From assembly GCA_022749895.1 (NCBI GenBank), contig JAKIWS010000005.1:8827-72826 (forward strand): DNA of 64,000 bases, in the 5' to 3' direction. The notes beneath the pieces were generated by a model that was not told the DNA's origin, made no database searches, and was given only the letters and a program-made list of their open reading frames with translations. The stretch is from Thermoplasmata archaeon (GTDB lineage Archaea; Thermoplasmatota; Thermoplasmata; Lutacidiplasmatales; UBA184). Shown one piece after another: positions 1 to 61,426 of this stretch. Position 1 is the first letter of the stretch; each line of letters starts with the position of its first letter. Position numbers and translations under genes: made by a program.

Positions 1-3000
1 AGGCATGCGCGGGCTGATCGACGAGTATCTACTGGCCCACGGCCAATCCCCGTACCTGGGGAACGCGAACCTCGCGGTCTACAAGGTCGGGAACGCCTGG
101 CAGAACGGCAACCTCTCGCTCGTCCCGTACTACGACATCGGGACCGTCCCCTACAACGGGGCCACCGGCGTGCTCGGCAACGGGACCAGTTTCTGGGGCA
201 ACTTCGGCGTCCAGCAGGGCTGGCAGTGGCCCCCCGGTCAGAAGTTCCCCGTCAACGCGCTGGGTCAGACGAACTACGGCGATACGCTCCCCGGATGGGA
301 CTTCCCGACCGGCTGGGGCTCGATCAACGTGTACAACTTCGCGGTCGACCTGCTCAAGCTGGACACGCTGCCCGGGCAGTTCCAAACTACGAACCCCGCC
401 GGCACGTCTTGGAATCCGAGCGGTTGGGCAAATCTAGCGATGAACTCAACGTATACGATTCACGTAAACGCCAGTTCGCAAATTGCACTGTCTAACCCCC
501 ACGTTACCCTGAAGTACATGCCTGAGAACGGTCCAGTCTCGACGTTCCAGCCCGCGTTGACGGCGACGTTAACCCCTACCGCAGGCTACACCTTCACTCT
601 CGACACGTCGACCGGCGTCATCAACGGCCCCGGGACCGTCATTTTCGAGTTCGGGAACGCTTCGAACCCTACTCTTGGGTTCGCCTACTCGTGGATCTCC
701 CTTGACCTGCCGAAGACCGGCGCGCTCGTCGTCACGGTGACGCAACCGTCGAGCAGCTCGATCGTGGGCGGCTTCTCCTGGTTCAACACCGCGCTCGGGT
801 ACAACGCGCCCATCACGCTCTCCCCCGGGCTCGGCCCGAACTACGGGAACGAGTTCACCGTCCACGTCACGATGAACGGAAAGCCCGTCTACAACGTGAA
901 GGTCGACGCCACGATCGCGTCGCCCTCGTTGCTCGCCTTCTCGGGCACCCGCCTCGAGCAGGTGACGAACGGCCTCGGTAACCCGCACTGGGAGCTGCCG
1001 AAGATCGTCTCCGAGTCGTTCACGAACGTTACCGGGGACGCGTTCGTCTACACCTGGAACATGATCAAGCCGACCACGTACTTCGTCAACGCCTCCTACG
1101 GCGGCGCGACCGGGGGCACGACCTACCTGGTCACCCCGGGCCCCAACGTGGGAACTACGGACGCGTACAGCGGGAACTATTCCCAGTTCAGTACGCCGGG
1201 CTTCGTGCTTCGGGCGCTCCGCCAGGTCGTGAACGGCGCGACGATCAACGCGACCGAACCGAACGCGCTCAACCAGACCGCACTCTACAACGTGATCTAC
1301 TCGTGGAAGGGCGAACTGCTCAACGTCACGACCAACGACTGGCAGGGCAACCGGCTCTCCGGTCTCAAGGTCTGGCTGGCGACGCTCGACCTCGGGGGCG
1401 AGAACAAGTTCTATCGGTACGAGGGATCGCGCGGTCTCATGGGCGTGACGAACGTCTCCGGAACCTCCGCCATCACCGACCTGAACGGTCAGGCGCAAGT
1501 CTACGTTCCGGACAACTACAGCGCGCTGCCCTGGTTCCAGTACCCCGACGGGACGATCGCCGAGCTCGGCTTCGTCGCAGCCAGCATCCCCGGGGCGTCG
1601 AACCGGACCTTCTCCTACCAGGAGCCGTGCGCGCCCAACAACCTCGGTAACCCGAGCACCAAGATCACGTGCCAGTACAACGACTCGTATTCCCGGAACT
1701 ATACCGGGGCTCCGATCCTGGTCCTGCCGAACCCGGTCGATGCGTGGACGCAGACGCCCAACCTCGTCCAGCGGGACTTCTTCGGGAACGGGGCGAACAT
1801 CTCCTGGGGGTACGACGTGACCCTCCCGAACAACGACCCGTTCCTGACGGGGATCGGCACGGCGTGGCTGCCGGGGACCGAGCACATCACCGGCGTTCAC
1901 GCGTTCGTCGACGGGGCCCCGGCGGGCGATCTATCGCCGGGCAATCCGCCCAACTACCAGAGCTACACCGCGAACGGCAACCTGACGGGGGTCTACGCCG
2001 ACGGGATCCACACGCTCACGGTCATCGTGACCGACTCGACCGGGCACACGTTCTCGAACCGCCACACGTTCATCGTCGGGTCGATCAAGCTGACCAACCT
2101 CGGCGTGACGAGCACCTACACCGTGCTGCCGTTCAACATGACCTGGCACCTCAGCATCCCGGCCGGCCAGATCAGCAACCACACGTTCAACCAGTCGCTC
2201 CAGATCCGGTACGTGACCGGCGCCTGCGGCGGGATCATCCCCTGCCCGGAGGTCGTCAACTACTCGATCAAGATCAAGGACGGGGTCGCCGATTACCAGC
2301 AGTCGCTCAACATCACGCTGCTCAATCTGAAGCACTTCTACGCCGGGGCCGGCGAGCCTCCGCCGGGCCAGTACCAGCTGATCGTCTGGGTCACGGCGAA
2401 CCATTCGGGGAGCATCGCGACATCGATCACGTCGTACCTCGTCTTCGACTCCGTGGCGGGGACGATCAACGGGCCGACCGCGAACGAGCTTTTGCCGCAG
2501 GGGAACGTCACGATCTCCTACTCGTACTCCGGCCAGTACGTTCAGAACTCGACCCTCGAGATCTTCGCCGTGGGTGCCCCGACGATCCCCGTGTTCACCG
2601 CGCAGGCGTTCGTCCCCGGTATCGGACTGCGGGGTGGTGCCGTCCAGTGGTCGGCGGTTCAGGGCGGGGCGTACCAGATCGTGCTGAGCCTAGGTACTCC
2701 GTACCGTACGTTGAACGCCACCGAGTGGGTCAACGTCTCCGGGGGACCCGGGAACGTCTGGCTCAACCAGAGCCGGCTCGCGTCGCCGCTCATGATCGTC
2801 AATCCGGCGGTGACCGCGACGGTGCTCGCCCTCGTGGTGGGCCTCATCGGGTTGCTCCTCGGACTGTTCCTCGCGCCCGCCCTCCGCTCGCGTCCAAGCG
2901 GGAGTGCGGTCGCCGCGCCGCCGCGTCCGTGGGAGGAGAGTTCCTCCTCGCCCGGCGGGCCGAGCGGCCCCACCGGTCCGCCGCGGTATGCGTGCTCGAC

Positions 3001-3267: not shown

Positions 3268-6200
3268 GTGAACGCCCACATTCGCCCCACCGTTGTTCCC
3301 CGAGCGCCGCGCCGATGGCTCGTCCTCCCACTCCTCGTGGCCATCCTTGCGATCACCGTGGTCGGGTCGGTCCCCGCCCTCGGCCGACCTCTCGCGACGG
3401 CCGTCCATCTTCCCACCGCGAACGGACCCGCCTCGGCCGGGGCCGCGCACGCGGCGATCACGGCCGCCCGCGCCTCGCTGGCGTCGGGTCAGGGACCTGC
3501 CGGGCTCCCCGTGCTCTACTCCGGCTCGCCGGCAACCCCGTGGACGCCCGCCTTCCAGCCCAACGTGGCCCCGTCGGCCCGCGCCGCCCTGGCGATGGCG
3601 TACGACCCGAGCGGTCCGTACGTGGTCGCTTTCGGCGGCGGGTGGAACGGCGGGACCTCGACCAACGACACGTGGGTGTTCGCGAACAACTCGTGGACCA
3701 ACATCTCGGCGACGCTCACGACCGCGCCGGGTCCGCGCGAAACCCCGATGATGGCGTACGATGCGGCCGACGGCTATCTCCTCCTGTTCGGGGGGTACAC
3801 GGGCAAGAACCCGAATTCGACCGGTTCCTACACCCTCAACGACACTTGGAAGTTCACGGCCGGGGCGTGGACGAACATCTCCACGTTCTCGTCATCCGCG
3901 CCCTCCCCCCGGTTCGCCGCGGCGATGACGTACGACTACACCGACGGCTACGCGGTGCTGTTCGGCGGGAACACGCTGTTCGGACCGCCCCTGAACGACA
4001 CCTGGACGTTCCACGCCGGAGCCTGGACGAACGTCTCCGCGACCGCCGGGACGGCACCGGCCGGTCGGGACTTCGCCGCGATGGCGGACGACCCGTTCGA
4101 CGGCTACGCCCTCCTGTTCGGCGGCTGGAACTCGACCAGCTCCGCGCTCTACAACGACACCTGGACGTTCGCGGGGGGGCACTGGGGCGCGCTCGCGACG
4201 ACCGTGCAGCCGGTGCCGCTGCGCGGGGAGAGCCTCGCGTACGACGCTTCGCACCACCAGGTGATTCTGTTCGGCGGGGCGGCAGCCGGCCTCGGTGGGC
4301 CGTTCTACCCCCAGGCGCAGACCTGGAGCTTTGCCGGCGGGGTGTGGACCGACCTCACCGCGACGATCGCGAGTCCCCCCCCGGCACGCTACCTGGCCGC
4401 GCTGACCAACGTCTCCGCGAACGGCTCGCTGCTGATGGCGGACGGATGCCTCGGGCAGGGCTGCGCGAACTTCCTCGACCTCTCCGATAGCTGGCTCTTC
4501 AACGCCTCGGGACCCGTGGCGCGGCCCTGGATCGAGGTCGGCGCGGTCGTCCAACCGTCCGAACGGGCGACCCCGGGGATGGTCTACGACGCCGCGGACC
4601 ACTACGTCCTCTACTTCGGCGGCGGGTGGAACGGCGGAACCTCCACGAACGATACCTGGGTGTACGCGAACCACACGTGGAGCAACATCAGCGCGAACGT
4701 GACGACCGCCCCCGCGGCCCGCGAGGACCCGGCGATGACGTACGACGCCCTGGACGGCTACGTGCTCCTGTTCGGTGGATACAGCGCGACGGGTGGCTAC
4801 GGCTCCCCGTCGTACACCCAGAACGACACGTGGACGTTCCACGCCGGGGTCTGGACGAACATCACGGCCTCCTCGCCCACCCACCCGTCCGCGCGCTTTG
4901 CGTCGGTCATGACCTACGACTACAACGACGGCTACGCCGTCCTGTTCAGCGGGAACGTGCTCTTCGGTGGCCCGATCGAGGACACCTGGACGTTCCACGC
5001 CGGGGTCTGGACGGACGTGACCGCGACGGCGGGAGCGCCCCCTGCAGGCCGCGACTTTGCGTCGATGACCGACGACCCGGCCGACGGGTACGTGCTCTTG
5101 TTCGGCGGGTGGAATTCGTCGATCGCCACCGTCTACAACGACACGTGGACGTTCGCCGCCGGGAAGTGGGCGCCGCTCACCCCCGCGGTCTCCCCGATGC
5201 CGATCCGCGGCGCGAACGTCGCGTTCGAGACCGTCGGGAACTACGTCCTCCTGTACGGCGGCCTCACCTACAGCGGCTACGGTTGGCCGTTCGGCTTCGT
5301 CACGGAGACGTGGGCGTTCAAGGCCGGGAACTGGACCAACCTGACGCCGATGATCACGACCGAGCCGCCCCCCCGCATGCTCGGCGGGATCACCAACATC
5401 TCCGGTACCGGGGAGATCGTGATGGCGGACGGCTGCATCTACCAGGGCTGCCCGGTCAACGAGGACCTCGCGGACACGTGGATCTACAACTGGACGAACA
5501 TCAACGGCACGTTCACGTCGCTCGCGCCGGTCGTGCTGCACCAGTCGGCGAAGTTCGCGGTCCACGTCTTCGGCGGCGACGGGGCCTATTCGTACCGGTA
5601 CTCCGGCCTTCCCGGCGGATGCACCTCCGCGAACGTCGCCGTGTTGAACTGCGTCCCGGCCTACGGGGGCAACTACACGATCGTGGCGCAGGTCACCGAC
5701 CGCGCCGGCAAGATGCTCGACCTCCGCCTGAACCTCACCCTCGGGGTCATGCCCCGCTCGCTCGCGCTGAGCGCCTCGGTCCCGGTGCTCGACGTGGGAC
5801 AGTCGGTGACGCTGAGCGCCGTGGCCGGTGGAGGCGCGGGTGCGCCGTGGACGTACGCGTTCACCGGGTTGCCGCCGGGCTGTGCGAGCGCGAACGTCGC
5901 GTCCCTCAGCTGCTCGCCGACGCAGGGCGGGAGCTACACCGTGACGGCGACCGCGACCGACGCCCAGGGTGGGCCGGTCCGCTCGGTCGTCGGCTTGGTC
6001 GTCCACCCGCCGGTGCGCGTCGCCGCGACGGTCTCCGCGGCGACGTTCGACCTCACGGAGTTCGTGACGATGACCGCCGCCGCCAGCCAGGGGTCGTCGG
6101 TCTACACCTACCTCTGGTCGAACCTTCCGACCGGTTGCCAGGCGGGCGCCACGACGACGACGCTCCAGTGCAAGCCGGCAACGGCCGGGACGTTCGCGAC

Positions 6201-6792
6201 CACGCTCCAAGCGACCGACTCCCTCGGGGAATCGGCGGTGACGGCGCCGATCGCCCTCACGGTGAACCCGCTCCCCGGGGTGCAGCTCGCGGCCCCGGTG
6301 GTCTCCACCTCCGACCCGCTCTCGGCAACGCTCGCCGCGCAGACGACGGGCGGGACCGGTCCGTACGCGGTCGCGTGGAACTTCGGCGACGGTCAGGCGG
6401 GTTCCGGGCCCTCGGTCGTCCACATCTACGCGGCCGGCGGCACCTACACCGTGGCCGTGTCGGTGACCGATGCGCGCGGGTTCGTCGCCTCGAGCAGCCA
6501 GAGCGTCACGGTGCAGGCGAGCCAGTCGAACTCACCGCCCCCGAACCACCCGACCGCGACGCACGGGGCGACGCCCTGGTTCGCGACGTTCGCGGGGATG
6601 TTCGGACTCGGCCTCGTGATCGGACTCGTGGCGCTGGCCGTCGTGGTCGTCTGGGGCGCCCGCCGTCGGCGGACGCTCCTCGAAGCCGAGCAGCTCGTGA
6701 CGGCGATCCCGCTCGTCGTGGAAGGTCCCCCAGGGGCCCCCACGATGGGCCCGGCCACGCCGAGCGGACCGTCCCCCCCACCGAAGGTTTAG
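3268..6792 (+). CDS. Large surface protein with a tandemly duplicated Kelch-like beta-propeller region, a PKD domain and a C-terminal membrane anchor.
   Basis: GTG start with an N-terminal signal/TM (WLVLPLLVAILAITVVG). Kelch-type units such as YDxxDGYxLLFGG and NDTW recur. PKD motif WNFGDGQAGSGPSVVHIYAAGGTYTVAVSVTD near the C-terminus. TM FAGMFGLGLVIGLVALAVVVVW followed by RRRR. Many N-x-S/T sequons. Confidence 0.65.
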   Translation: MNAHIRPTVVPRAPRRWLVLPLLVAILAITVVGSVPALGRPLATAVHLPTANGPASAGAAHAAITAARASLASGQGPAGLPVLYSGSPATPWTPAFQPNVAPSARAALAMAYDPSGPYVVAFGGGWNGGTSTNDTWVFANNSWTNISATLTTAPGPRETPMMAYDAADGYLLLFGGYTGKNPNSTGSYTLNDTWKFTAGAWTNISTFSSSAPSPRFAAAMTYDYTDGYAVLFGGNTLFGPPLNDTWTFHAGAWTNVSATAGTAPAGRDFAAMADDPFDGYALLFGGWNSTSSALYNDTWTFAGGHWGALATTVQPVPLRGESLAYDASHHQVILFGGAAAGLGGPFYPQAQTWSFAGGVWTDLTATIASPPPARYLAALTNVSANGSLLMADGCLGQGCANFLDLSDSWLFNASGPVARPWIEVGAVVQPSERATPGMVYDAADHYVLYFGGGWNGGTSTNDTWVYANHTWSNISANVTTAPAAREDPAMTYDALDGYVLLFGGYSATGGYGSPSYTQNDTWTFHAGVWTNITASSPTHPSARFASVMTYDYNDGYAVLFSGNVLFGGPIEDTWTFHAGVWTDVTATAGAPPAGRDFASMTDDPADGYVLLFGGWNSSIATVYNDTWTFAAGKWAPLTPAVSPMPIRGANVAFETVGNYVLLYGGLTYSGYGWPFGFVTETWAFKAGNWTNLTPMITTEPPPRMLGGITNISGTGEIVMADGCIYQGCPVNEDLADTWIYNWTNINGTFTSLAPVVLHQSAKFAVHVFGGDGAYSYRYSGLPGGCTSANVAVLNCVPAYGGNYTIVAQVTDRAGKMLDLRLNLTLGVMPRSLALSASVPVLDVGQSVTLSAVAGGGAGAPWTYAFTGLPPGCASANVASLSCSPTQGGSYTVTATATDAQGGPVRSVVGLVVHPPVRVAATVSAATFDLTEFVTMTAAASQGSSVYTYLWSNLPTGCQAGATTTTLQCKPATAGTFATTLQATDSLGESAVTAPIALTVNPLPGVQLAAPVVSTSDPLSATLAAQTTGGTGPYAVAWNFGDGQAGSGPSVVHIYAAGGTYTVAVSVTDARGFVASSSQSVTVQASQSNSPPPNHPTATHGATPWFATFAGMFGLGLVIGLVALAVVVVWGARRRRTLLEAEQLVTAIPLVVEGPPGAPTMGPATPSGPSPPPKV
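3571..5540. repeat. Internal tandem duplication of about 0.98 kb per unit inside the Kelch-repeat gene (two copies of a whole propeller module).
   Basis: Protein residues about 102-429 and 430-757 align end to end (AMAYDPSGPYVVAFGGGWNGGTSTNDTWVFANNSW versus MVYDAADHYVLYFGGGWNGGTSTNDTWVYANHTW). The DNA is also clearly similar, for example ttcggcggcgggtggaacggcgg.acctc.ac.aacga. Confidence 0.6.
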
Positions 6793-7492: not shown

Positions 7493-8158
7493 CTACCCGG
7501 TCTTGGGCAGGAGGCCGAACGCCTTGCTTTCGGAGACGAGGACGAGGGGGGAGCGGCCGGTGGCCGCCGCAAAGTCCACGAAGGCGTAGCTCCAGTCGAC
7601 GTCGTCGGACGCGAGCCACCCCGCCGCCGAGAGCTTCGACCAGGCGAGAGCGAACTCCAGGCTCTGCCAACGGTACGTGTGGTCGCTGTCGTGGATGAAC
7701 AGGTCGATCGACGGGATCGACGCAAACACGGCCTCGAGGTCCCGGCGCGGTCGTCGCCGCGACAGCAGGCGAAGGTCCCACCCGGCACGCAACTCGGGAG
7801 GGATCAGCGCGCCGACATCCGGTCGGACGTCGATGGAGGTGAGCTGGCCGCCGCCGTTGCGTCGAAGGGCCTCCAGTATGAGGTAGCTCGAGTGGCCGTT
7901 GGCGACCCCGGTCTCGACGACCCGTTGGGGGGCCCGACCCCGGACGATCCCGTAGACCAGGAGCGACTCCGCGCCCGAGAAGGCGGAAACGGTCGGGTAC
8001 GGCAGCGACGACCCATACCGCTTCTTGAGCCCGTCCGACACCTCGCGGAACTCGACGACCAGTTCACCGACGCGGTCCCGGGGGAATCCCGGTATCCGGG
8101 TGAGGATCGCGGCGGCGTCCGTGCTCTGCAGCGTGGCGCGGGCGTACGACTCCATCAT
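7493..8158 (-). CDS. Class I SAM-dependent O-methyltransferase (family 3 / TylF-CmcI-like).
   Basis: VETGVANGHSSYLILEAL with a GGQLTSID SAM-binding fold and a DSDH motif. Start chosen at the internal MMESYA. The longer ORF up to 8545 is probably an upstream read-through of the frame. Confidence 0.6.
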   Translation of the reverse strand: MMESYARATLQSTDAAAILTRIPGFPRDRVGELVVEFREVSDGLKKRYGSSLPYPTVSAFSGAESLLVYGIVRGRAPQRVVETGVANGHSSYLILEALRRNGGGQLTSIDVRPDVGALIPPELRAGWDLRLLSRRRPRRDLEAVFASIPSIDLFIHDSDHTYRWQSLEFALAWSKLSAAGWLASDDVDWSYAFVDFAAATGRSPLVLVSESKAFGLLPKTG

Positions 8159-8651
8159 CCGGGGCGCGACGAACCGGTGGGCGAGACGGCGCACCGCGCC
8201 GGCGTAGCGGTCGGCGACGTAACTCCGCCCGACCTCCCAGACGCCCTCTTGACGCAGGCGCTCACGAACGGTGGAGCGGCGCGGAGCGTTCGGAGGGGGC
8301 GAATTCGCCAACCGTTGGGACCTCCGAAAGCTGAGGTCCGCCTCCCGGTCGAGGACGAGAAGGGCCGGTATATGGCCTGCGCGGCGGGGCGACGCCCGGC
8401 GGGGAGCTCTCGAGGGCGAACGACGCGAAAGTCGAAGACCTTGCCTCGTTCCGATCGTTTCAGCGTCGCCGGATTGAGAGAGGCGCGACGCTCGGCGGAG
8501 GAAGCGCACCCAAAGATGGTGCGTCCGAGTGTGACGAATCCACATCCCTTCGAACGTCGGAGGTAGGTGCCGACGCGGAGGCGCGTCGCCCCGGTTATTC
8601 TTCGCCGGAGCGGAGCTTCGCCCGAGAGCCGTGTTCCGCGAGATTTAAGTA

Positions 8652-13696: not shown

Positions 13697-13812
13697 TGCG
13701 GGGAGCCGGATTCGAACCGGCGAACGCCTTCGCGGCAGGATCTCCCGGGTCCGGGCCGGGGCCGCTCGACCGTTTAAGTCCTGCGCCGTTGCCCTGGCTT
13801 GGCTATCCCCGC
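13697..13812 (-). tRNA. tRNA-Leu (anticodon UAA) with a 31-nt intron at the canonical 37/38 position (13742-13772).
   Basis: Folded by hand on the reverse complement. Acceptor GCGGGGA pairs with TCCCCGC, discriminator A. Long class-II D-arm GCC-AAGCCAGGGCAAC-GGC. Anticodon stem CAGGA/TCCTG with loop CTTAAA|intron|A. Variable arm CCGCGAAGGCGTTC. T-arm GCCGG-TTCGAAT-CCGGC. No encoded CCA. Mature length 85 nt. Confidence 0.75.
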
Positions 13813-14183: not shown

Positions 14184-15971
14184 TCACGACTCGGGCGCCG
14201 CCGGACGCGCCGGGGCCTGCTTGACCTGCGCGCGGTACATCGTCACGAGCTCGTCGGAGGTCGTCGCTTCGGTCGGTCCCTTGTCGTCGCGCCATTTCCC
14301 CGTCGAGCGCGGGAACCGGAGCGCCAAGCCCGCGTCGGGACGGATCTTGCCTACGCCGGCCCGGTGGATCGGGCTCAACGTGAGCTCGGCGCCGCGCACC
14401 TCGAGGACGAAATGGGGTTCGATCCACTGGTCCGGTTCGAGCTCGGTCAGGAGGCCTTTCGGACGCTCGGCGACCTCCTTCGACTTGAGCTTCGCCGGCA
14501 GGCCCGCGACCGTCGCGTCGTCGAAGCCGCCCCCGACCTTGCAGAACGACTCGTACCGGTCCTCCTCGGGGTTGTAGGTGGCCAGGAGGAGCGCGCCGTA
14601 CCCTCCCGCGCGACGACCTCGGCCGTAGAACGCGCCGACGACGACGCCATCGATCGTGTCGCCGAGGGTGTGCGTGTAGTCGCGCTTGTACTTGATCCAC
14701 CAGAAGCCGCGCGCCCCGGCCCGGTACGAGCTTCCGGCGGCGATCGATTTCGCCATGATCCCCTCGCAGCCGTCGGCGATCGCGGCGTCGAACCAGGTCT
14801 GGGCCCCCTCGACATCGTGGACGACCTTCTGCTGGGCGAGTCGAACTCGGTCCGTCGGCCGGACGAGCGTGACGAGTTCCTTCCGCCGATCCGGCAGCGG
14901 CCGATCCATGACCGACGTGCCGCCGGCCATCAGGGTGTCGAACAGGAACAGGCAGACCGGGATCTCGTCCTGAATCTTGTCGAGGTCGTACTTCCGGCCG
15001 CGGCGGCGGGAGACCTCCTGGAACGGACGGATCTCGTCCGTCTCCGGGTCGATCGGAACGCACTCTCCCTCGACGATCGCCGGTTTGTGCCGGATCGCCC
15101 GCGGCAAGTCGGCGACGAGTTCCGGGAATTGTGCGCTGATGTTCTCGAGGCGGCGCGAGAACAGCTTCACGGCCCCTTCGGAGGGGATGTGCGCCTGCAC
15201 GCGCAGGCCGTCGTACTTGTACTCGATCGCCGCCCCCTCGGGCATCCGCTCGAGGATCTCGGCGAGATTCGTCGCCCGCTCGGCGAGCATGGGCCGCACG
15301 GGCCGTCCGACCTCGAGGCCGATCGAGCTGAGGGCGTCGAGCGAGCCGCTCGCGAGCGTCGCGGCCACGTGACCGAGGTCGCTCGAGAGGTTGTACGCCG
15401 CCTCGATGCGGCTGCGGGCCTCCTTCGAACCGTCGGCGAACGCGACGCCCAGGGCGTCCAGAAGGGACATCTCGCGGACGCCGAGCCGGAGCGTTCCCAG
15501 GACGAAGCGAAGCACGTACTTCCCCTCGGCCGGAGTGGCGCGGTTGAGGAGGTCGACGAGCGTGCGGACCTTGACCTCCTGCGAACCTTCCCCCGAGGCG
15601 CGCGCGATGGACGTGAAGCCGGCGTAGACCTCCTCGACCTCGAGCGGCGCCGCGGTGTCGAGCCGCGGTCGCTTTTCGAGCAGCGTCGCCGCCGTCGTCC
15701 CGAGGTCGCCGCTCGCGCGGACCGAGGCGGTCACCTCCGCGGCGGAAGCCCCGGTCGCTTGGACCACCGCCTTGCGCGCGAGGGAGTCCGCGACGCCGAG
15801 CTCGACGCCCTCGTACTCGGGGCGCAACATTCCCTGCGACAAGTAGAGGACGATTGGGAGATCCTTCGACGGCGTGGCGCGGAGGAGCTCTACCAAGATC
15901 GAGCGCATCTCGAGGCGCTTCGACGTCGCCTCGATCCGGTCGTACCAGGCGACCAGGTCAGCGAACCGCAC
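14184..15971 (-). CDS. lig: ATP-dependent DNA ligase.
   Basis: KxDG adenylation motif (AIEYKYDGLRVQAH), EGIMAKS and the WWIKYKRDY OB-fold region. The N-terminus FADLVAWYDRIEATSKRLEM is typical of archaeal Lig. GTG start at 15969-15971, just downstream of the rpe stop. Confidence 0.85.
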   Translation of the reverse strand: MRFADLVAWYDRIEATSKRLEMRSILVELLRATPSKDLPIVLYLSQGMLRPEYEGVELGVADSLARKAVVQATGASAAEVTASVRASGDLGTTAATLLEKRPRLDTAAPLEVEEVYAGFTSIARASGEGSQEVKVRTLVDLLNRATPAEGKYVLRFVLGTLRLGVREMSLLDALGVAFADGSKEARSRIEAAYNLSSDLGHVAATLASGSLDALSSIGLEVGRPVRPMLAERATNLAEILERMPEGAAIEYKYDGLRVQAHIPSEGAVKLFSRRLENISAQFPELVADLPRAIRHKPAIVEGECVPIDPETDEIRPFQEVSRRRGRKYDLDKIQDEIPVCLFLFDTLMAGGTSVMDRPLPDRRKELVTLVRPTDRVRLAQQKVVHDVEGAQTWFDAAIADGCEGIMAKSIAAGSSYRAGARGFWWIKYKRDYTHTLGDTIDGVVVGAFYGRGRRAGGYGALLLATYNPEEDRYESFCKVGGGFDDATVAGLPAKLKSKEVAERPKGLLTELEPDQWIEPHFVLEVRGAELTLSPIHRAGVGKIRPDAGLALRFPRSTGKWRDDKGPTEATTSDELVTMYRAQVKQAPARPAAPES

Positions 15972-58987: not shown

Positions 58988-59227
58988 ATGCTCGCGCAGG
59001 CCGATCTCCGTGCGTCGTTCACCTCGGACGAGCGGTACCAGCACTGCACGTTCTGCGGGAAGGAACTCGTCGTTCTCCCGAACGACCGGCGGGGCGGGGC
59101 CTGTTTCGACTGCCTCTCGCTCCTCGGCGGGGACCCCGCGCGGTGCCAGGAATGCGGGGCCGAGATCCCGTCCGCCCGCCGGGGCGAAGAGTGTCCCCGC
59201 TGCGGGGCGCCCGCCCCGGTCGCCTAA
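58988..59227 (+). CDS. Small double zinc-ribbon protein.
   Basis: CTFCGKELV...CFDCLS and CQECGAEIPSARRGEECPRCG: two C-X2-C...C-X2-C units in 79 aa. Confidence 0.4.
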   Translation: MLAQADLRASFTSDERYQHCTFCGKELVVLPNDRRGGACFDCLSLLGGDPARCQECGAEIPSARRGEECPRCGAPAPVA

Positions 59228-59297
59228 GGTCGCCCGCGGCGGCACGACCACGCGCCGCCAAGCTTATTCAACACATCCTCTCGGAGAGCCCGGGCGT

Positions 59298-59415
59298 GCC
59301 GAGGTGGCTCAGTCCGGTACGGCGCGAGTCTGGAAAGCTCGTGGCGGAATACGCTTCGGGAGTTCAAAGACCGGGACCGGTCGCCCCGGCCCGGCGGAAA
59401 TTCTCCCCCTCGGCG
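59298..59415 (+). tRNA. tRNA-Ser (anticodon GGA) interrupted by a non-canonical intron of about 33 nt inside the T-loop (around position 59/60; intron approximately 59369-59401).
   Basis: Hand fold. Acceptor GCCGAGG (59298-59304) pairs perfectly with CCTCGGC (59408-59414), discriminator G. D-stem GCT/GGC. Anticodon stem CGAGT/GCTCG with loop CTGGAAA. Long variable arm with a 4-bp stem (GGCG-GAATA-CGCT). T-stem GGGAG (59358-59362) pairs with CTCCC (59403-59407), flanking TTCAAA...T. Removing the insert gives an 85-nt class-II tRNA. Confidence 0.55.
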
Positions 59416-59446
59416 CTCCCTCCCGCCCGCTCTGGAAGGTGAGCTC

Positions 59447-59938
59447 CTGAGCGTCGAGCCCCGGCGCGCGACGCCCGCGCTGCTGCAGATCGACGCGGTC
59501 CTGACCCGGCTTCGCGGCGCCGACGCGCTGCAAGAGGTCTGTCGATTCCTGCGCGCCGAGTTCGCCCACTACCGGTGGGTGGGGGTCTACCGCCTCAACG
59601 GCGAGGAGCTCAGCCTCGCCGCCTGGGACGGCGCTCAAGCTACCGAGCACACAAAGATACCCGTGGCGGACGGGGTCTGCGGCCGTGCGGTCCGTGAGAA
59701 CCGGACGGTGGTCGTGGATGACGTGCGCACCGCGCCCGAATACCTCGCCTGTTTCCTCGAGACCCGGGCCGAGATCGTGGTGCCCGTCCGGGCCGCCGGT
59801 TCCATCCTCGGGGAGATCGATATTGACGGCAACGAGGTCAAGGCGTTCGACGCGAGCGACGCCCGGTTCCTGGAGACCGTCGCGGCCCGGATCGCCCCCG
59901 CGCTCGGCGCGGTGGCCGCACCATCCCCGAGCGGCTGA
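59447..59938 (+). CDS. GAF-domain protein (free methionine-(R)-sulfoxide reductase-like). The start codon is unresolved.
   Basis: YRWVGVYRLNGEELSLAAWDG...PVADGVCGRAV...ILGEIDIDGNEV aligns with the fRMsr/GAF family including the conserved Cys. The frame is open upstream through the tRNA-Ser. No canonical start exists after the tRNA end other than GTG at 59579, which would truncate conserved sequence. Confidence 0.5.
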   Translation: MSVEPRRATPALLQIDAVLTRLRGADALQEVCRFLRAEFAHYRWVGVYRLNGEELSLAAWDGAQATEHTKIPVADGVCGRAVRENRTVVVDDVRTAPEYLACFLETRAEIVVPVRAAGSILGEIDIDGNEVKAFDASDARFLETVAARIAPALGAVAAPSPSG

Positions 59939-60685: not shown

Positions 60686-61426
60686 CTACTCGCCTTCCGC
60701 CGGGGTCGTGGGTTTCTCGCCGTTGGTTCGGGCGGTGGGCGCCGGAACCCCGAGCTGACCCTCCATGTGGGCCACACGCTGCTCGAGCGGGGCGAGGTAC
60801 TCCTCGATCGTCTTCGCGACCACCAATTTCAGGCTCTCCTCGAGCGCGACCAGGTCGCGGCCCAGGTCGGTCATCCGTCGTGCGTTCTCGCTGAGCAGAA
60901 GTCGCGTCTGCGTCGCCACGCGGTAGGTGTCGGCGACGTCCTTCGTGACCTGCCGCGAGCCCTGCGCGAACGCCTCGACGGAATCCGAGATCGGGCGCCA
61001 CTTCGCATCGAGGTCCTTCAGGACCTGCTCGCTCACGCGCTGAGCGACCGCGTTCGTGCCGTCCTCGATCCCCTTTCCGAGCTGCGCGCCCAGGTCCGGT
61101 CCGAGACGCTCCAACCGGCCCCGCACCTCTTCTTCGAGCGTCCGGTCCCGCTCCTCGGCGCGGGCGAGTCGGTCGTCCATCGCCTCGAGTCGCGAGACGA
61201 GGTTCGCGTAGGCGGAACCGATGAGCGTGTCGACGTGGCTCTGCTCTTGCTCGAGGGCGCGGAGGGTGAGATGGAGGACCCAGTGCTCCTTGCCCTTGGT
61301 CTCGGCAATGGGGCCCCGGTCGACCCGGTCGCGGGCCTCGCGGTTGTCAATGAGTTGCTGGAGCTCCTTCAGGACCTCGAGGCGGAGGTTCTGCGGCCCG
61401 GTCCCCGGAGCGGGCCTGCCGGCCAT
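60686..61426 (-). CDS. Coiled-coil hypothetical protein.
   Basis: Heptad-rich and charged, for example LEVLKELQQLIDNREARDRVD and ALEESLKLVVAKTIEEYLAPLEQRVAHMEGQL. No recognised domain. Confidence 0.35.
   Translation of the reverse strand: MAGRPAPGTGPQNLRLEVLKELQQLIDNREARDRVDRGPIAETKGKEHWVLHLTLRALEQEQSHVDTLIGSAYANLVSRLEAMDDRLARAEERDRTLEEEVRGRLERLGPDLGAQLGKGIEDGTNAVAQRVSEQVLKDLDAKWRPISDSVEAFAQGSRQVTKDVADTYRVATQTRLLLSENARRMTDLGRDLVALEESLKLVVAKTIEEYLAPLEQRVAHMEGQLGVPAPTARTNGEKPTTPAEGE

Follow-up and report, generated by a model that had tools for sequence, protein, structure and literature searches.

The 64,000-nt stretch of DNA analysed here (hereafter the window; contig JAKIWS010000005.1 of a Thermoplasmata archaeon, G+C content 68.5%) raises the question of whether 118 nt at 59298-59415 on its forward strand form a genuine gene for tRNA-Ser(GGA) with a divided T-loop, or a stretch that comes to resemble one once a suitable segment has been cut out. 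Judged from its sequence and from those of its relatives, the locus is best regarded as a real tRNA-Ser(GGA) gene interrupted by a 33-nt intron in the T-loop. It is very probably a functional gene, found in high-GC Thermoplasmata of the Lutacidiplasmatales type, with an archaeal-type intron between tRNA positions 59 and 60 that would be spliced by way of a motif of the bulge-helix-bulge (BHB) kind.

The sequence at 59298-59415 (+) reads GCCGAGG-TG-GCTC...GGGAG-TTCAAA-GACCGGGACCGGTCGCCCCGGCCCGGCGGAAAT-T-CTCCC-CCTCGGC-G. When the 33 nt at 59369-59401, lying between tRNA positions 59 and 60, were taken out of the 118-nt unspliced precursor, the resulting 85-nt sequence was called as tRNA-Ser(GGA) by ARAGORN. 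The stems of this spliced form comprise 7 bp (acceptor), 3 bp (D), 5 bp (anticodon), 4 bp (variable arm) and 5 bp (T), with the acceptor, anticodon and T stems perfectly paired, a long variable arm and a T-loop of TTCAAAT. The conserved tRNA bases T8 and A14, the GG of the D-loop and the anticodon loop CT-GGA-AA could all be read from the sequence. The discriminator base of archaeal tRNA-Ser is G73, while that of archaeal tRNA-Leu is A73; the base at 59415 is G, and a tRNA-Leu gene at 13697-13812 of the same window ends in A. A preliminary description, made from the letters of the window, had placed a tRNA-Ser(GGA) with a T-loop split by 33 nt at this locus, and had stated that the stems of an 85-nt class-II tRNA pair fully once 59369-59401 is excised. 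Its coordinates were found to be exact and the pairing was found to be as it described. The parts of the gene are the following:

59298-59368 (+): exon 1, tRNA positions 1-59 (from the 5' strand of the acceptor through the D, anticodon and long variable arms to the 5' strand of the T stem and TTCAAA), as given by ARAGORN on the spliced form, with columns invariant or nearly so in 91 aligned genes.
59332-59334 (+): anticodon GGA, within exon 1.
59369-59401 (+): intron of 33 nt at tRNA 59/60, with an insert of 31-33 nt at the same site in 116 relatives.
59402-59415 (+): exon 2 (U60, the 3' strands of the T stem and of the acceptor, then G73; no CCA is encoded at its end), as given by ARAGORN, with columns invariant in the 91 genes.

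The unspliced gene was not recovered by the tRNA finders used. ARAGORN made no call at the locus, with or without its anticodon-loop intron mode and lowered thresholds. Rfam at gathering thresholds made no tRNA call at 59298-59415. At a permissive threshold, the Rfam tRNA model RF00005 scored 20.4 bits against a cut-off of 29, in a match spanning 59298-59361 only with a mis-paired acceptor. This sub-threshold, mis-paired match is as expected for a split T arm and does not constitute evidence contrary to a tRNA. Elsewhere in the window, ARAGORN in intron mode with lowered thresholds returned many spurious tRNAs with introns hundreds of nucleotides long, and intron mode reported a 'tRNA-Ala' and a 'tRNA-Arg' at 5823-6640 and 7496-8165 (+), with introns of 726 and 583 nt respectively, which look like artefacts of a permissive search in GC-rich DNA.

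Two controls bear on the possibility that a GC-rich stretch resembles a tRNA by chance after an arbitrary excision. The first was a deletion scan, in which 33 nt were removed at every position and ARAGORN was run on each construct, for the real window and for five dinucleotide shuffles of it. Three loci were obtained from the real window, namely the tRNA-Ser gene, the tRNA already known at 13.7 kb and one poor match near 14970 that was rejected as a false positive, while the shuffles gave none, none, one and at least one in each of the remaining two. With approximately one spurious locus per shuffled window from a freely placed 33-nt deletion, excision followed by an ARAGORN call is not significant by itself. 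The second was a strict matcher (acceptor 7/7, U8, T stem 5/5, TTCRA and 10-60 extra nt in the T-loop), which gave 0.09 matches per shuffled window against two in the real window. The second of these two matches (1536-1662, minus strand) was rejected as false, ARAGORN having seen no tRNA there at any splice position tried. The case for the gene therefore rests on comparative evidence, namely its conservation.

Genomes representing the GTDB species, one for each, were scanned with an exon-only 21-mer (the 3' strand of the D stem with the anticodon arm) as the probe. This identified at least 119 loci, nearly all of them in metagenome-assembled genomes (MAGs) of Thermoplasmata; the matches listed include a MAG of Ca. 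Lutacidiplasmatales as well as Ca. Lutacidiplasma silvani. The gene was present in a single copy per genome wherever the scan could show copy number. Among the genes extracted, 116 were 116-118 nt long with an insert of 31-33 nt, always immediately 3' of TTCAAA. Uninterrupted genes of 84-85 nt were found in six to seven relatives (L014, L023, L034, L038, L065, L066 and L126), mostly from lower-GC lineages, such as the low-GC archaeon from horse faeces L014. The T arm and acceptor of the predicted splice product (25 nt) were identical to the contiguous sequence of the intron-less L023, L034, L065 and L066, which can be taken as natural controls for the spliced form. Two contigs encoding homologues (71-74% identical) of the GAF-domain protein encoded downstream of the tRNA were found to carry the same tRNA-Ser(GGA), with near-identical exons and a 33-nt insert of very different sequence at the same site. 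The gene order is common to the window and these two relatives: ABC ATPase, ABC-2 permease, small zinc-ribbon protein, a gap occupied by the tRNA, GAF protein and phosphopantothenate synthetase. From these comparisons the split gene is conserved in more than 100 related species. At least 116 independent genomes share identical exons and precisely the same insertion site; this recurrence, together with a spliced product that equals real uninterrupted genes of sister lineages, refutes the chance explanation and leaves it a probability of practically nil, despite the spurious loci of the deletion scan and the one false match of the strict matcher in the real window.

One of the intron-less loci, L065 (JAKBKR010000055.1), is titled 'MAG: bacterium isolate DX1.bin10' and carries the same tRNA-Ser(GGA) as L023 and L034, both of them Thermoplasmata MAGs, in all the parts printed. 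Its sequence suggests that this bin may be mislabelled or mixed.

An alignment of 91 distinct 118-nt genes was then scored against an explicit precursor structure consisting of the cloverleaf stems, a central helix, two bulges and an inner hairpin within the intron. Mean pairwise identity was 98.5% for the exons and 70.2% for the introns (90 of which were distinct), with variable exon columns restricted to the D-loop and variable arm and the exon stems 100% paired and invariant. The central helix, in which U54-U55-C56 pair with the intron bases n-4 to n-2, was 100% paired in all 91 genes; the base opposite C56 is an invariant G, and those opposite U54 and U55 are only ever A or G (UG in 49 and UA in 42 genes at the one pair, UA in 69 and UG in 22 at the other). 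Within the intron hairpin, compensatory double changes were observed at eight of ten pairs and 88% of cells were paired. Neither the observed percentage of pairing nor the covariation score was reached by any of 500 shuffles, and pairing fell to 44-56% when the 3' partners were slid by one to three columns as a control. At the 3' site, a strict arrangement of helix and 3-nt bulge (from T stem to central helix) was present in 91/91 genes, with A as the first bulge base in 90. At the 5' site, intron base 2 and base n-6 form a standard first inner pair in approximately 68 of the 91 genes, giving a clean 3-nt bulge, and are mismatched in the other 23. In a local fold of the T arm and insert of the window gene, the corresponding structure lay within 0.9 kcal/mol of the optimum. 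The structural elements are positioned as follows:

59363-59365 (+): U54, U55 and C56, the 5' side of the central BHB helix, paired with 59397-59399 in 91/91 genes.
59397-59399 (+): G-A-A (G-R-R across the clade), the 3' side of the central BHB helix, from the pairing counts of the alignment.
59367-59369 (+): 5' splice bulge (A58, A59 / G, the latter being intron base 1), with a predicted cut between 59368 and 59369, from the alignment geometry.
59400-59402 (+): 3' splice bulge (A, U / U60), with a predicted cut between 59401 and 59402; a 3-nt bulge in 91/91 sequences.
59371-59394 (+): intron hairpin CCGGG-A-CCGG / TCGCC loop / CCGG-CCCGG, which makes up inner helix h' of the BHB, from the local fold and the compensatory changes.

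In a BHB, by definition, a 4-bp helix separates two bulges of 3 nt each, and the splice junctions lie inside these bulges (PMC6379350). In the present gene the flanking helices would be the invariant 5-bp T stem (h) and the intron hairpin (h'), and the consensus of the clade can be modelled as a near-canonical hBHBh' motif, of which the window gene is a version relaxed on its 5' side. The search for such a motif at the two junctions, which the preliminary description had put forward as a check, accordingly revealed a compatible structure, with a strict 3' bulge and a 5' bulge loosened by an A.C mismatch.

The same alignment bears on whether the locus is a decaying or disrupted tRNA pseudogene, its insert being inactivating junk and UCC/UCU codons being read by another tRNA. 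The absence of calls by standard finders and the imperfect 5' bulge of the window gene would be in keeping with such decay, and a second copy could be looked for within the window rather than in the rest of its genome. What is observed is that exons 98.5% identical, with stems invariant in 91 genes, enclose an insert that is only 70% identical and yet keeps its pairing through compensatory changes; such maintenance over more than 100 species is not expected of a pseudogene. The exon-only scan also gave one copy per genome wherever this was visible, and a promoter-like box is conserved upstream. A pseudogene is accordingly considered very improbable. The upstream elements are:

59264-59268 (+): TATA-like box, TTATT within AAGCTTATTCAA, approximately 30-34 nt 5' of the tRNA; putative promoter.
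59292-59297 (+): 5' leader GGGCGT, abutting the mature 5' end; near-invariant in the clade.

Across 109 distinct upstream regions, the AT fraction was 0.95-0.99 at positions -34 to -32 and 0.8 at -39/-38, against approximately 0.2 elsewhere. The TATA-like box (cTTATt) is a putative archaeal promoter of the tRNA. Separately, GGGCGT (-6 to -1) was found to be near-invariant in some 109 related loci, in contrast to the variable remainder of the leader; it may provide context for leader processing, or pair with the 3' trailer.

In the geometry of canonical introns at 37/38, both cuts lie between the second and third bases of the 3-nt bulges. For the present intron the 59/60 junction is preferred over 58/59 or 60/61, because it alone places both cuts between bulge bases 2 and 3 and it alone gives every one of the 91 genes an identical mature loop, UUCAAAU. 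That the intron is real with its junctions shifted by one base is improbable, the loop obtained at 59/60 being also that of the intron-less relatives and the symmetric rule of the 37/38 geometry being satisfied nowhere else. The shift draws some support from genes in which the last intron base is T (52/91) or the first is T (9/91), where moving the junction by one base gives an equally valid 7-nt T-loop. The predicted junction in the spliced tRNA is ...GGGAGUUCAAA/UCUCCC..., i.e. AAA/U.

A further possibility is that the insert is not removed through a BHB at all, and instead forms an enlarged functional T-loop, separates two tRNA halves or acts as a guide or regulatory RNA module. Its length (31-33 nt) and hairpin are conserved, and a conserved A.G mismatch in the central region could signify a function beyond splicing. 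A 40-nt T-loop is, on the other hand, incompatible with the elbow formed by the D-loop and T-loop in established tRNA architecture, and the features conserved are exactly those that a BHB requires. The intron of haloarchaeal tRNA-Trp carries a C/D-box guide RNA, and such a guide needs approximately 50 nt or more; the 33-nt insert GACCGGGACCGGTCGCCCCGGCCCGGCGGAAAT is too short and contains neither a C box (RUGAUGA) nor a D box (CUGA). This alternative is consequently held to be highly unlikely. Group I and group II introns are hundreds of nucleotides long and possess a ribozyme core; a self-splicing intron of either group was rejected, the insert being 31-33 nt in all 116 genes with no match to an Rfam intron family.

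For BHB splicing at 59/60, the steps would be as follows. In the precursor, U54-U55-C56 would pair with G-R-R near the 3' end of the intron, with the T stem on one side and the intron hairpin on the other, so that the two junctions would fall in 3-nt bulges on opposite strands approximately four base-pair steps apart. Archaeal EndA recognises a BHB regardless of its position in the tRNA, and it would be expected to cut both bulges, at 59368/59369 and 59401/59402. An RtcB-type ligase would then join the exons into an 85-nt tRNA with the T-loop UUCAAAU, to which CCA would be added after ligation, as none is encoded.

Several observations weigh against this interpretation. At the position of the fourth central pair, 88/91 genes have an A57.G mismatch (59366 with 59396 in the window), which departs from the textbook BHB. 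The first inner pair in the window is A.C (59370/59395), so that the 5' bulge there is part of a 5x2 internal loop; the closest relative, L108, likewise has A.C at this pair. Folded as a whole, the precursor has a minimum-free-energy structure other than a cloverleaf, a result often seen with GC-rich tRNAs and uninformative. The copy number of tRNA-Ser(GGA) in the genome of the window could be seen only within these 64 kb, and splicing is itself something that we infer from the established archaeal pathway. Lastly, Cluster II Euryarchaeota have been reported to possess only the narrow-specificity alpha'2 form of EndA (PMC5829648), which is poor on relaxed motifs; the EndA of T. acidophilum is of this alpha'2 type, with narrow specificity (PMC5829648, PMC6379350). 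A tblastn search of the window and 126 loci (approximately 1 Mb) with M. jannaschii EndA as the query (identical to PDB 1A79 over residues 9-179) found nothing real; one weak match (E = 0.23, L015) fell in a coiled-coil protein and was rejected as spurious.

A single gain in the ancestor of the clade, followed by vertical inheritance, is the most likely history of the intron, whose sequence has drifted while its structure was kept. It is conceivable, if rather unlikely, that the intron has been fixed since the origin of this order-level soil clade, with a near-strict BHB selected for an alpha'2 EndA, and that it has been kept for a function. The selected features would then be the near-invariant A57.G and the A at the first position of both bulges, a proposal that is held just as tentatively. 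Possible functions include the delaying of T-loop modification or folding until splicing, or the breaking up of the 3' half of the tRNA as an integration target.

A second tRNA gene with an intron is present in the window:

13697-13812 (-): tRNA-Leu(UAA), with a canonical 37/38 intron at 13742-13772; found by ARAGORN with introns allowed and giving Leu(UAA) when spliced at 37/38.

ARAGORN in intron mode labelled this locus tRNA-Ser(TGA) with a misplaced intron, but splicing at 37/38 gives Leu(UAA) with A73, in agreement with the preliminary description, which had named it a tRNA-Leu with a canonical intron. Its intron motif consists of a central helix of C-G, U.G and U.G with an A35.C mismatch, a 5' bulge of AA/C and a 3' bulge of AG/A. 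The tRNA-Ser and tRNA-Leu introns are thus alike in size (33 and 31 nt), in possessing a GC-rich hairpin, in having three central pairs with a mismatch and in a 5' bulge that begins with AA, and they differ in location, the former lying in the T-loop with the T stem as its outer helix and the latter in the anticodon loop with the anticodon stem. The occurrence of the same kind of motif in the tRNA-Leu intron supports BHB splicing of the tRNA-Ser intron, as do the TATA-like box and the leader GGGCGT found ahead of the tRNA-Ser gene across the clade, and by analogy both introns are presumably cut by the same enzyme.

An exact 12-mer, GCCCCGGCCCGG, was also found to be common to the tRNA-Ser intron (59383-59394, +) and the tRNA-Leu intron (13751-13762, -), and an 11-mer, CCCCGGCCCGG, occurs three times in the window with both strands counted. 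The alignment score of the 12-mer was reached by 20 of 2000 shuffles, and the sharing was not used as evidence; it could reflect common origin, gene conversion or the convergence of GC-rich hairpins.

Directly downstream of the tRNA lies a gene of which the reading frame extends back over the locus:

59447-59938 (+): GAF-domain gene (free Met-R-sulfoxide reductase-like) with a probable CTG start, as placed by the N-termini of homologues; not part of the tRNA.

Such an extended frame would make the region protein-coding, as an N-terminal extension of the GAF protein, and the frame is indeed free of stop codons from before 59231 to 59938. No ATG, GTG or TTG is available in this frame before 59579, however, and the 120 homologues are mostly 161-176 aa long, with the inspected N-termini aligning to 59447. 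In 69 syntenic loci the median distance from the tRNA to the start codon 3' of it is 31 nt, and the DNA upstream of that codon is conserved as RNA structure and not as codons. The open frame across the tRNA is, on this comparison, judged not to be coding, as the preliminary description had held in calling it spurious; an N-terminal extension is for practical purposes refuted, with a negligible probability.

Homologues of the GAF protein are mostly 163 aa long with the N-terminus M/V-S/T-V-x-P-R, among them P0006 ('Thermoplasmata archaeon'), which is 99% identical, with many others at 65-74% identity. At the aligned start codon, the 69 syntenic loci include 36 with ATG, 27 with GTG, one with TTG and two with CTG, the last being the window and L108 only; in the window this CTG (59447) begins 31 nt after the tRNA. 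P0006 has been annotated from the internal GTG at 59579, giving a truncated product of 119 aa in place of approximately 163 aa, because no ATG, GTG or TTG occurs in frame before that position. The GAF gene either initiates at the near-cognate CTG or is impaired in the lineage of the window and L108. A frameshift of this gene by an 8-nt insertion after the GTG at 59439 was also considered, and was dropped on comparison with L108 and with the N-termini of homologues.

Two other neighbouring genes encode proteins with no Pfam match on record. A small cysteine-rich, zinc-ribbon-like protein with two CxxC...CxxC motifs (58988-59227, +; 79-88 aa; L002 2532-2798) is conserved directly 5' of the tRNA in relatives. 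A coiled-coil-looking protein of 243-246 aa (60686-61426, -; L015 825-1556; L001 4227-4958) adjoins the phosphopantothenate synthetase in the clade, and is the source of the spurious EndA match.

Introns at 59/60 are a known type, occurring in ARMAN-2 and Thermoproteales, and no new mechanism is shown here. In ARMAN-2, an intron at 59/60 has been described for pre-tRNA-Cys (hBH motif), and pre-tRNA-Pro has introns at 53/54 and 59/60 (strict BHB) (PMC3239211). The present intron resembles these in being a short, BHB-type intron at 59/60 of the T-loop, and the tRNA-Pro example forms a strict hBHBh' motif. It differs in that ARMAN-2 belongs to DPANN, with introns in other tRNAs, a broad-specificity epsilon2 EndA and descriptions from individual genomes; the present case is that of one intron fixed in one and the same tRNA over more than 100 species of a Thermoplasmata clade. 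Thermoproteales and Thaumarchaeota likewise have BHB or relaxed-BHB introns outside 37/38, the T-loop included, that are removed by EndA (PMC8450103; PMC6379350). Their genomes, however, contain many such introns (in Thermoproteales, 0.84 per gene), which are gained and lost rapidly, and their EndA is of the (alpha-beta)2 type, in contrast to the single, anciently fixed intron described here in a lineage reported to have alpha'2 only.

The dedicated routine for non-canonical introns in tRNAscan-SE 2.0 and the associated Table S7 (PMC8450103) provide a further point of comparison. For 144 euryarchaeal genomes the table records 520 canonical introns and 25 non-canonical ones, the latter including six in three genomes of Methanomassiliicoccales and one in five of Thermoplasmatales. 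These belong to the same class (Thermoplasmata) and represent the same general phenomenon, in a table that is without positions or tRNA identities, and they indicate that the splicing machinery of Thermoplasmata copes with non-canonical positions. Lutacidiplasmatales have been described as soil archaea of approximately 69% GC and 2.1 Mb, formerly known as TMEG ('Terrestrial Miscellaneous Euryarchaeota Group'), in a paper that does not mention tRNA introns (PMC9287336), and no paper describing the present intron in Lutacidiplasmatales or Thermoplasmatota was found in the literature. The preliminary description had considered an intron outside 37/38 to be noteworthy here; the intron is real, but it is less exceptional than was implied, since the 59/60 position is documented and the class is already represented in published tallies (PMC3239211, PMC8450103).

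tRNA-Ser(GGA) reads the UCC and UCU codons, which are expected to be common at 68.5% GC, and as both ARAGORN and Rfam are blind to the gene, annotations of the clade that depend on them will report this tRNA as missing. The same annotations may give the neighbouring GAF gene a wrong start or cut it short, or run an open reading frame across the tRNA.

For the clade itself, the intron constitutes a datable marker of a single gain, and the 91 distinct natural variants amount to a ready-made mutational series of one non-canonical intron, from which the indispensable features of the BHB can be read: the A.G mismatch, the 3' bulge and the three pairs made with U54-U55-C56 are kept, and the 5' bulge tolerates loosening. 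If the EndA of the clade is the narrow alpha'2 form, the gene would be a test case for the proposed co-evolution of intron motif and endonuclease architecture. Should the intron in fact be retained and processed by such an alpha'2 enzyme, it would provide a counter-example to the association of non-canonical introns with the broad-specificity (alpha-beta)2 or epsilon2 enzymes.

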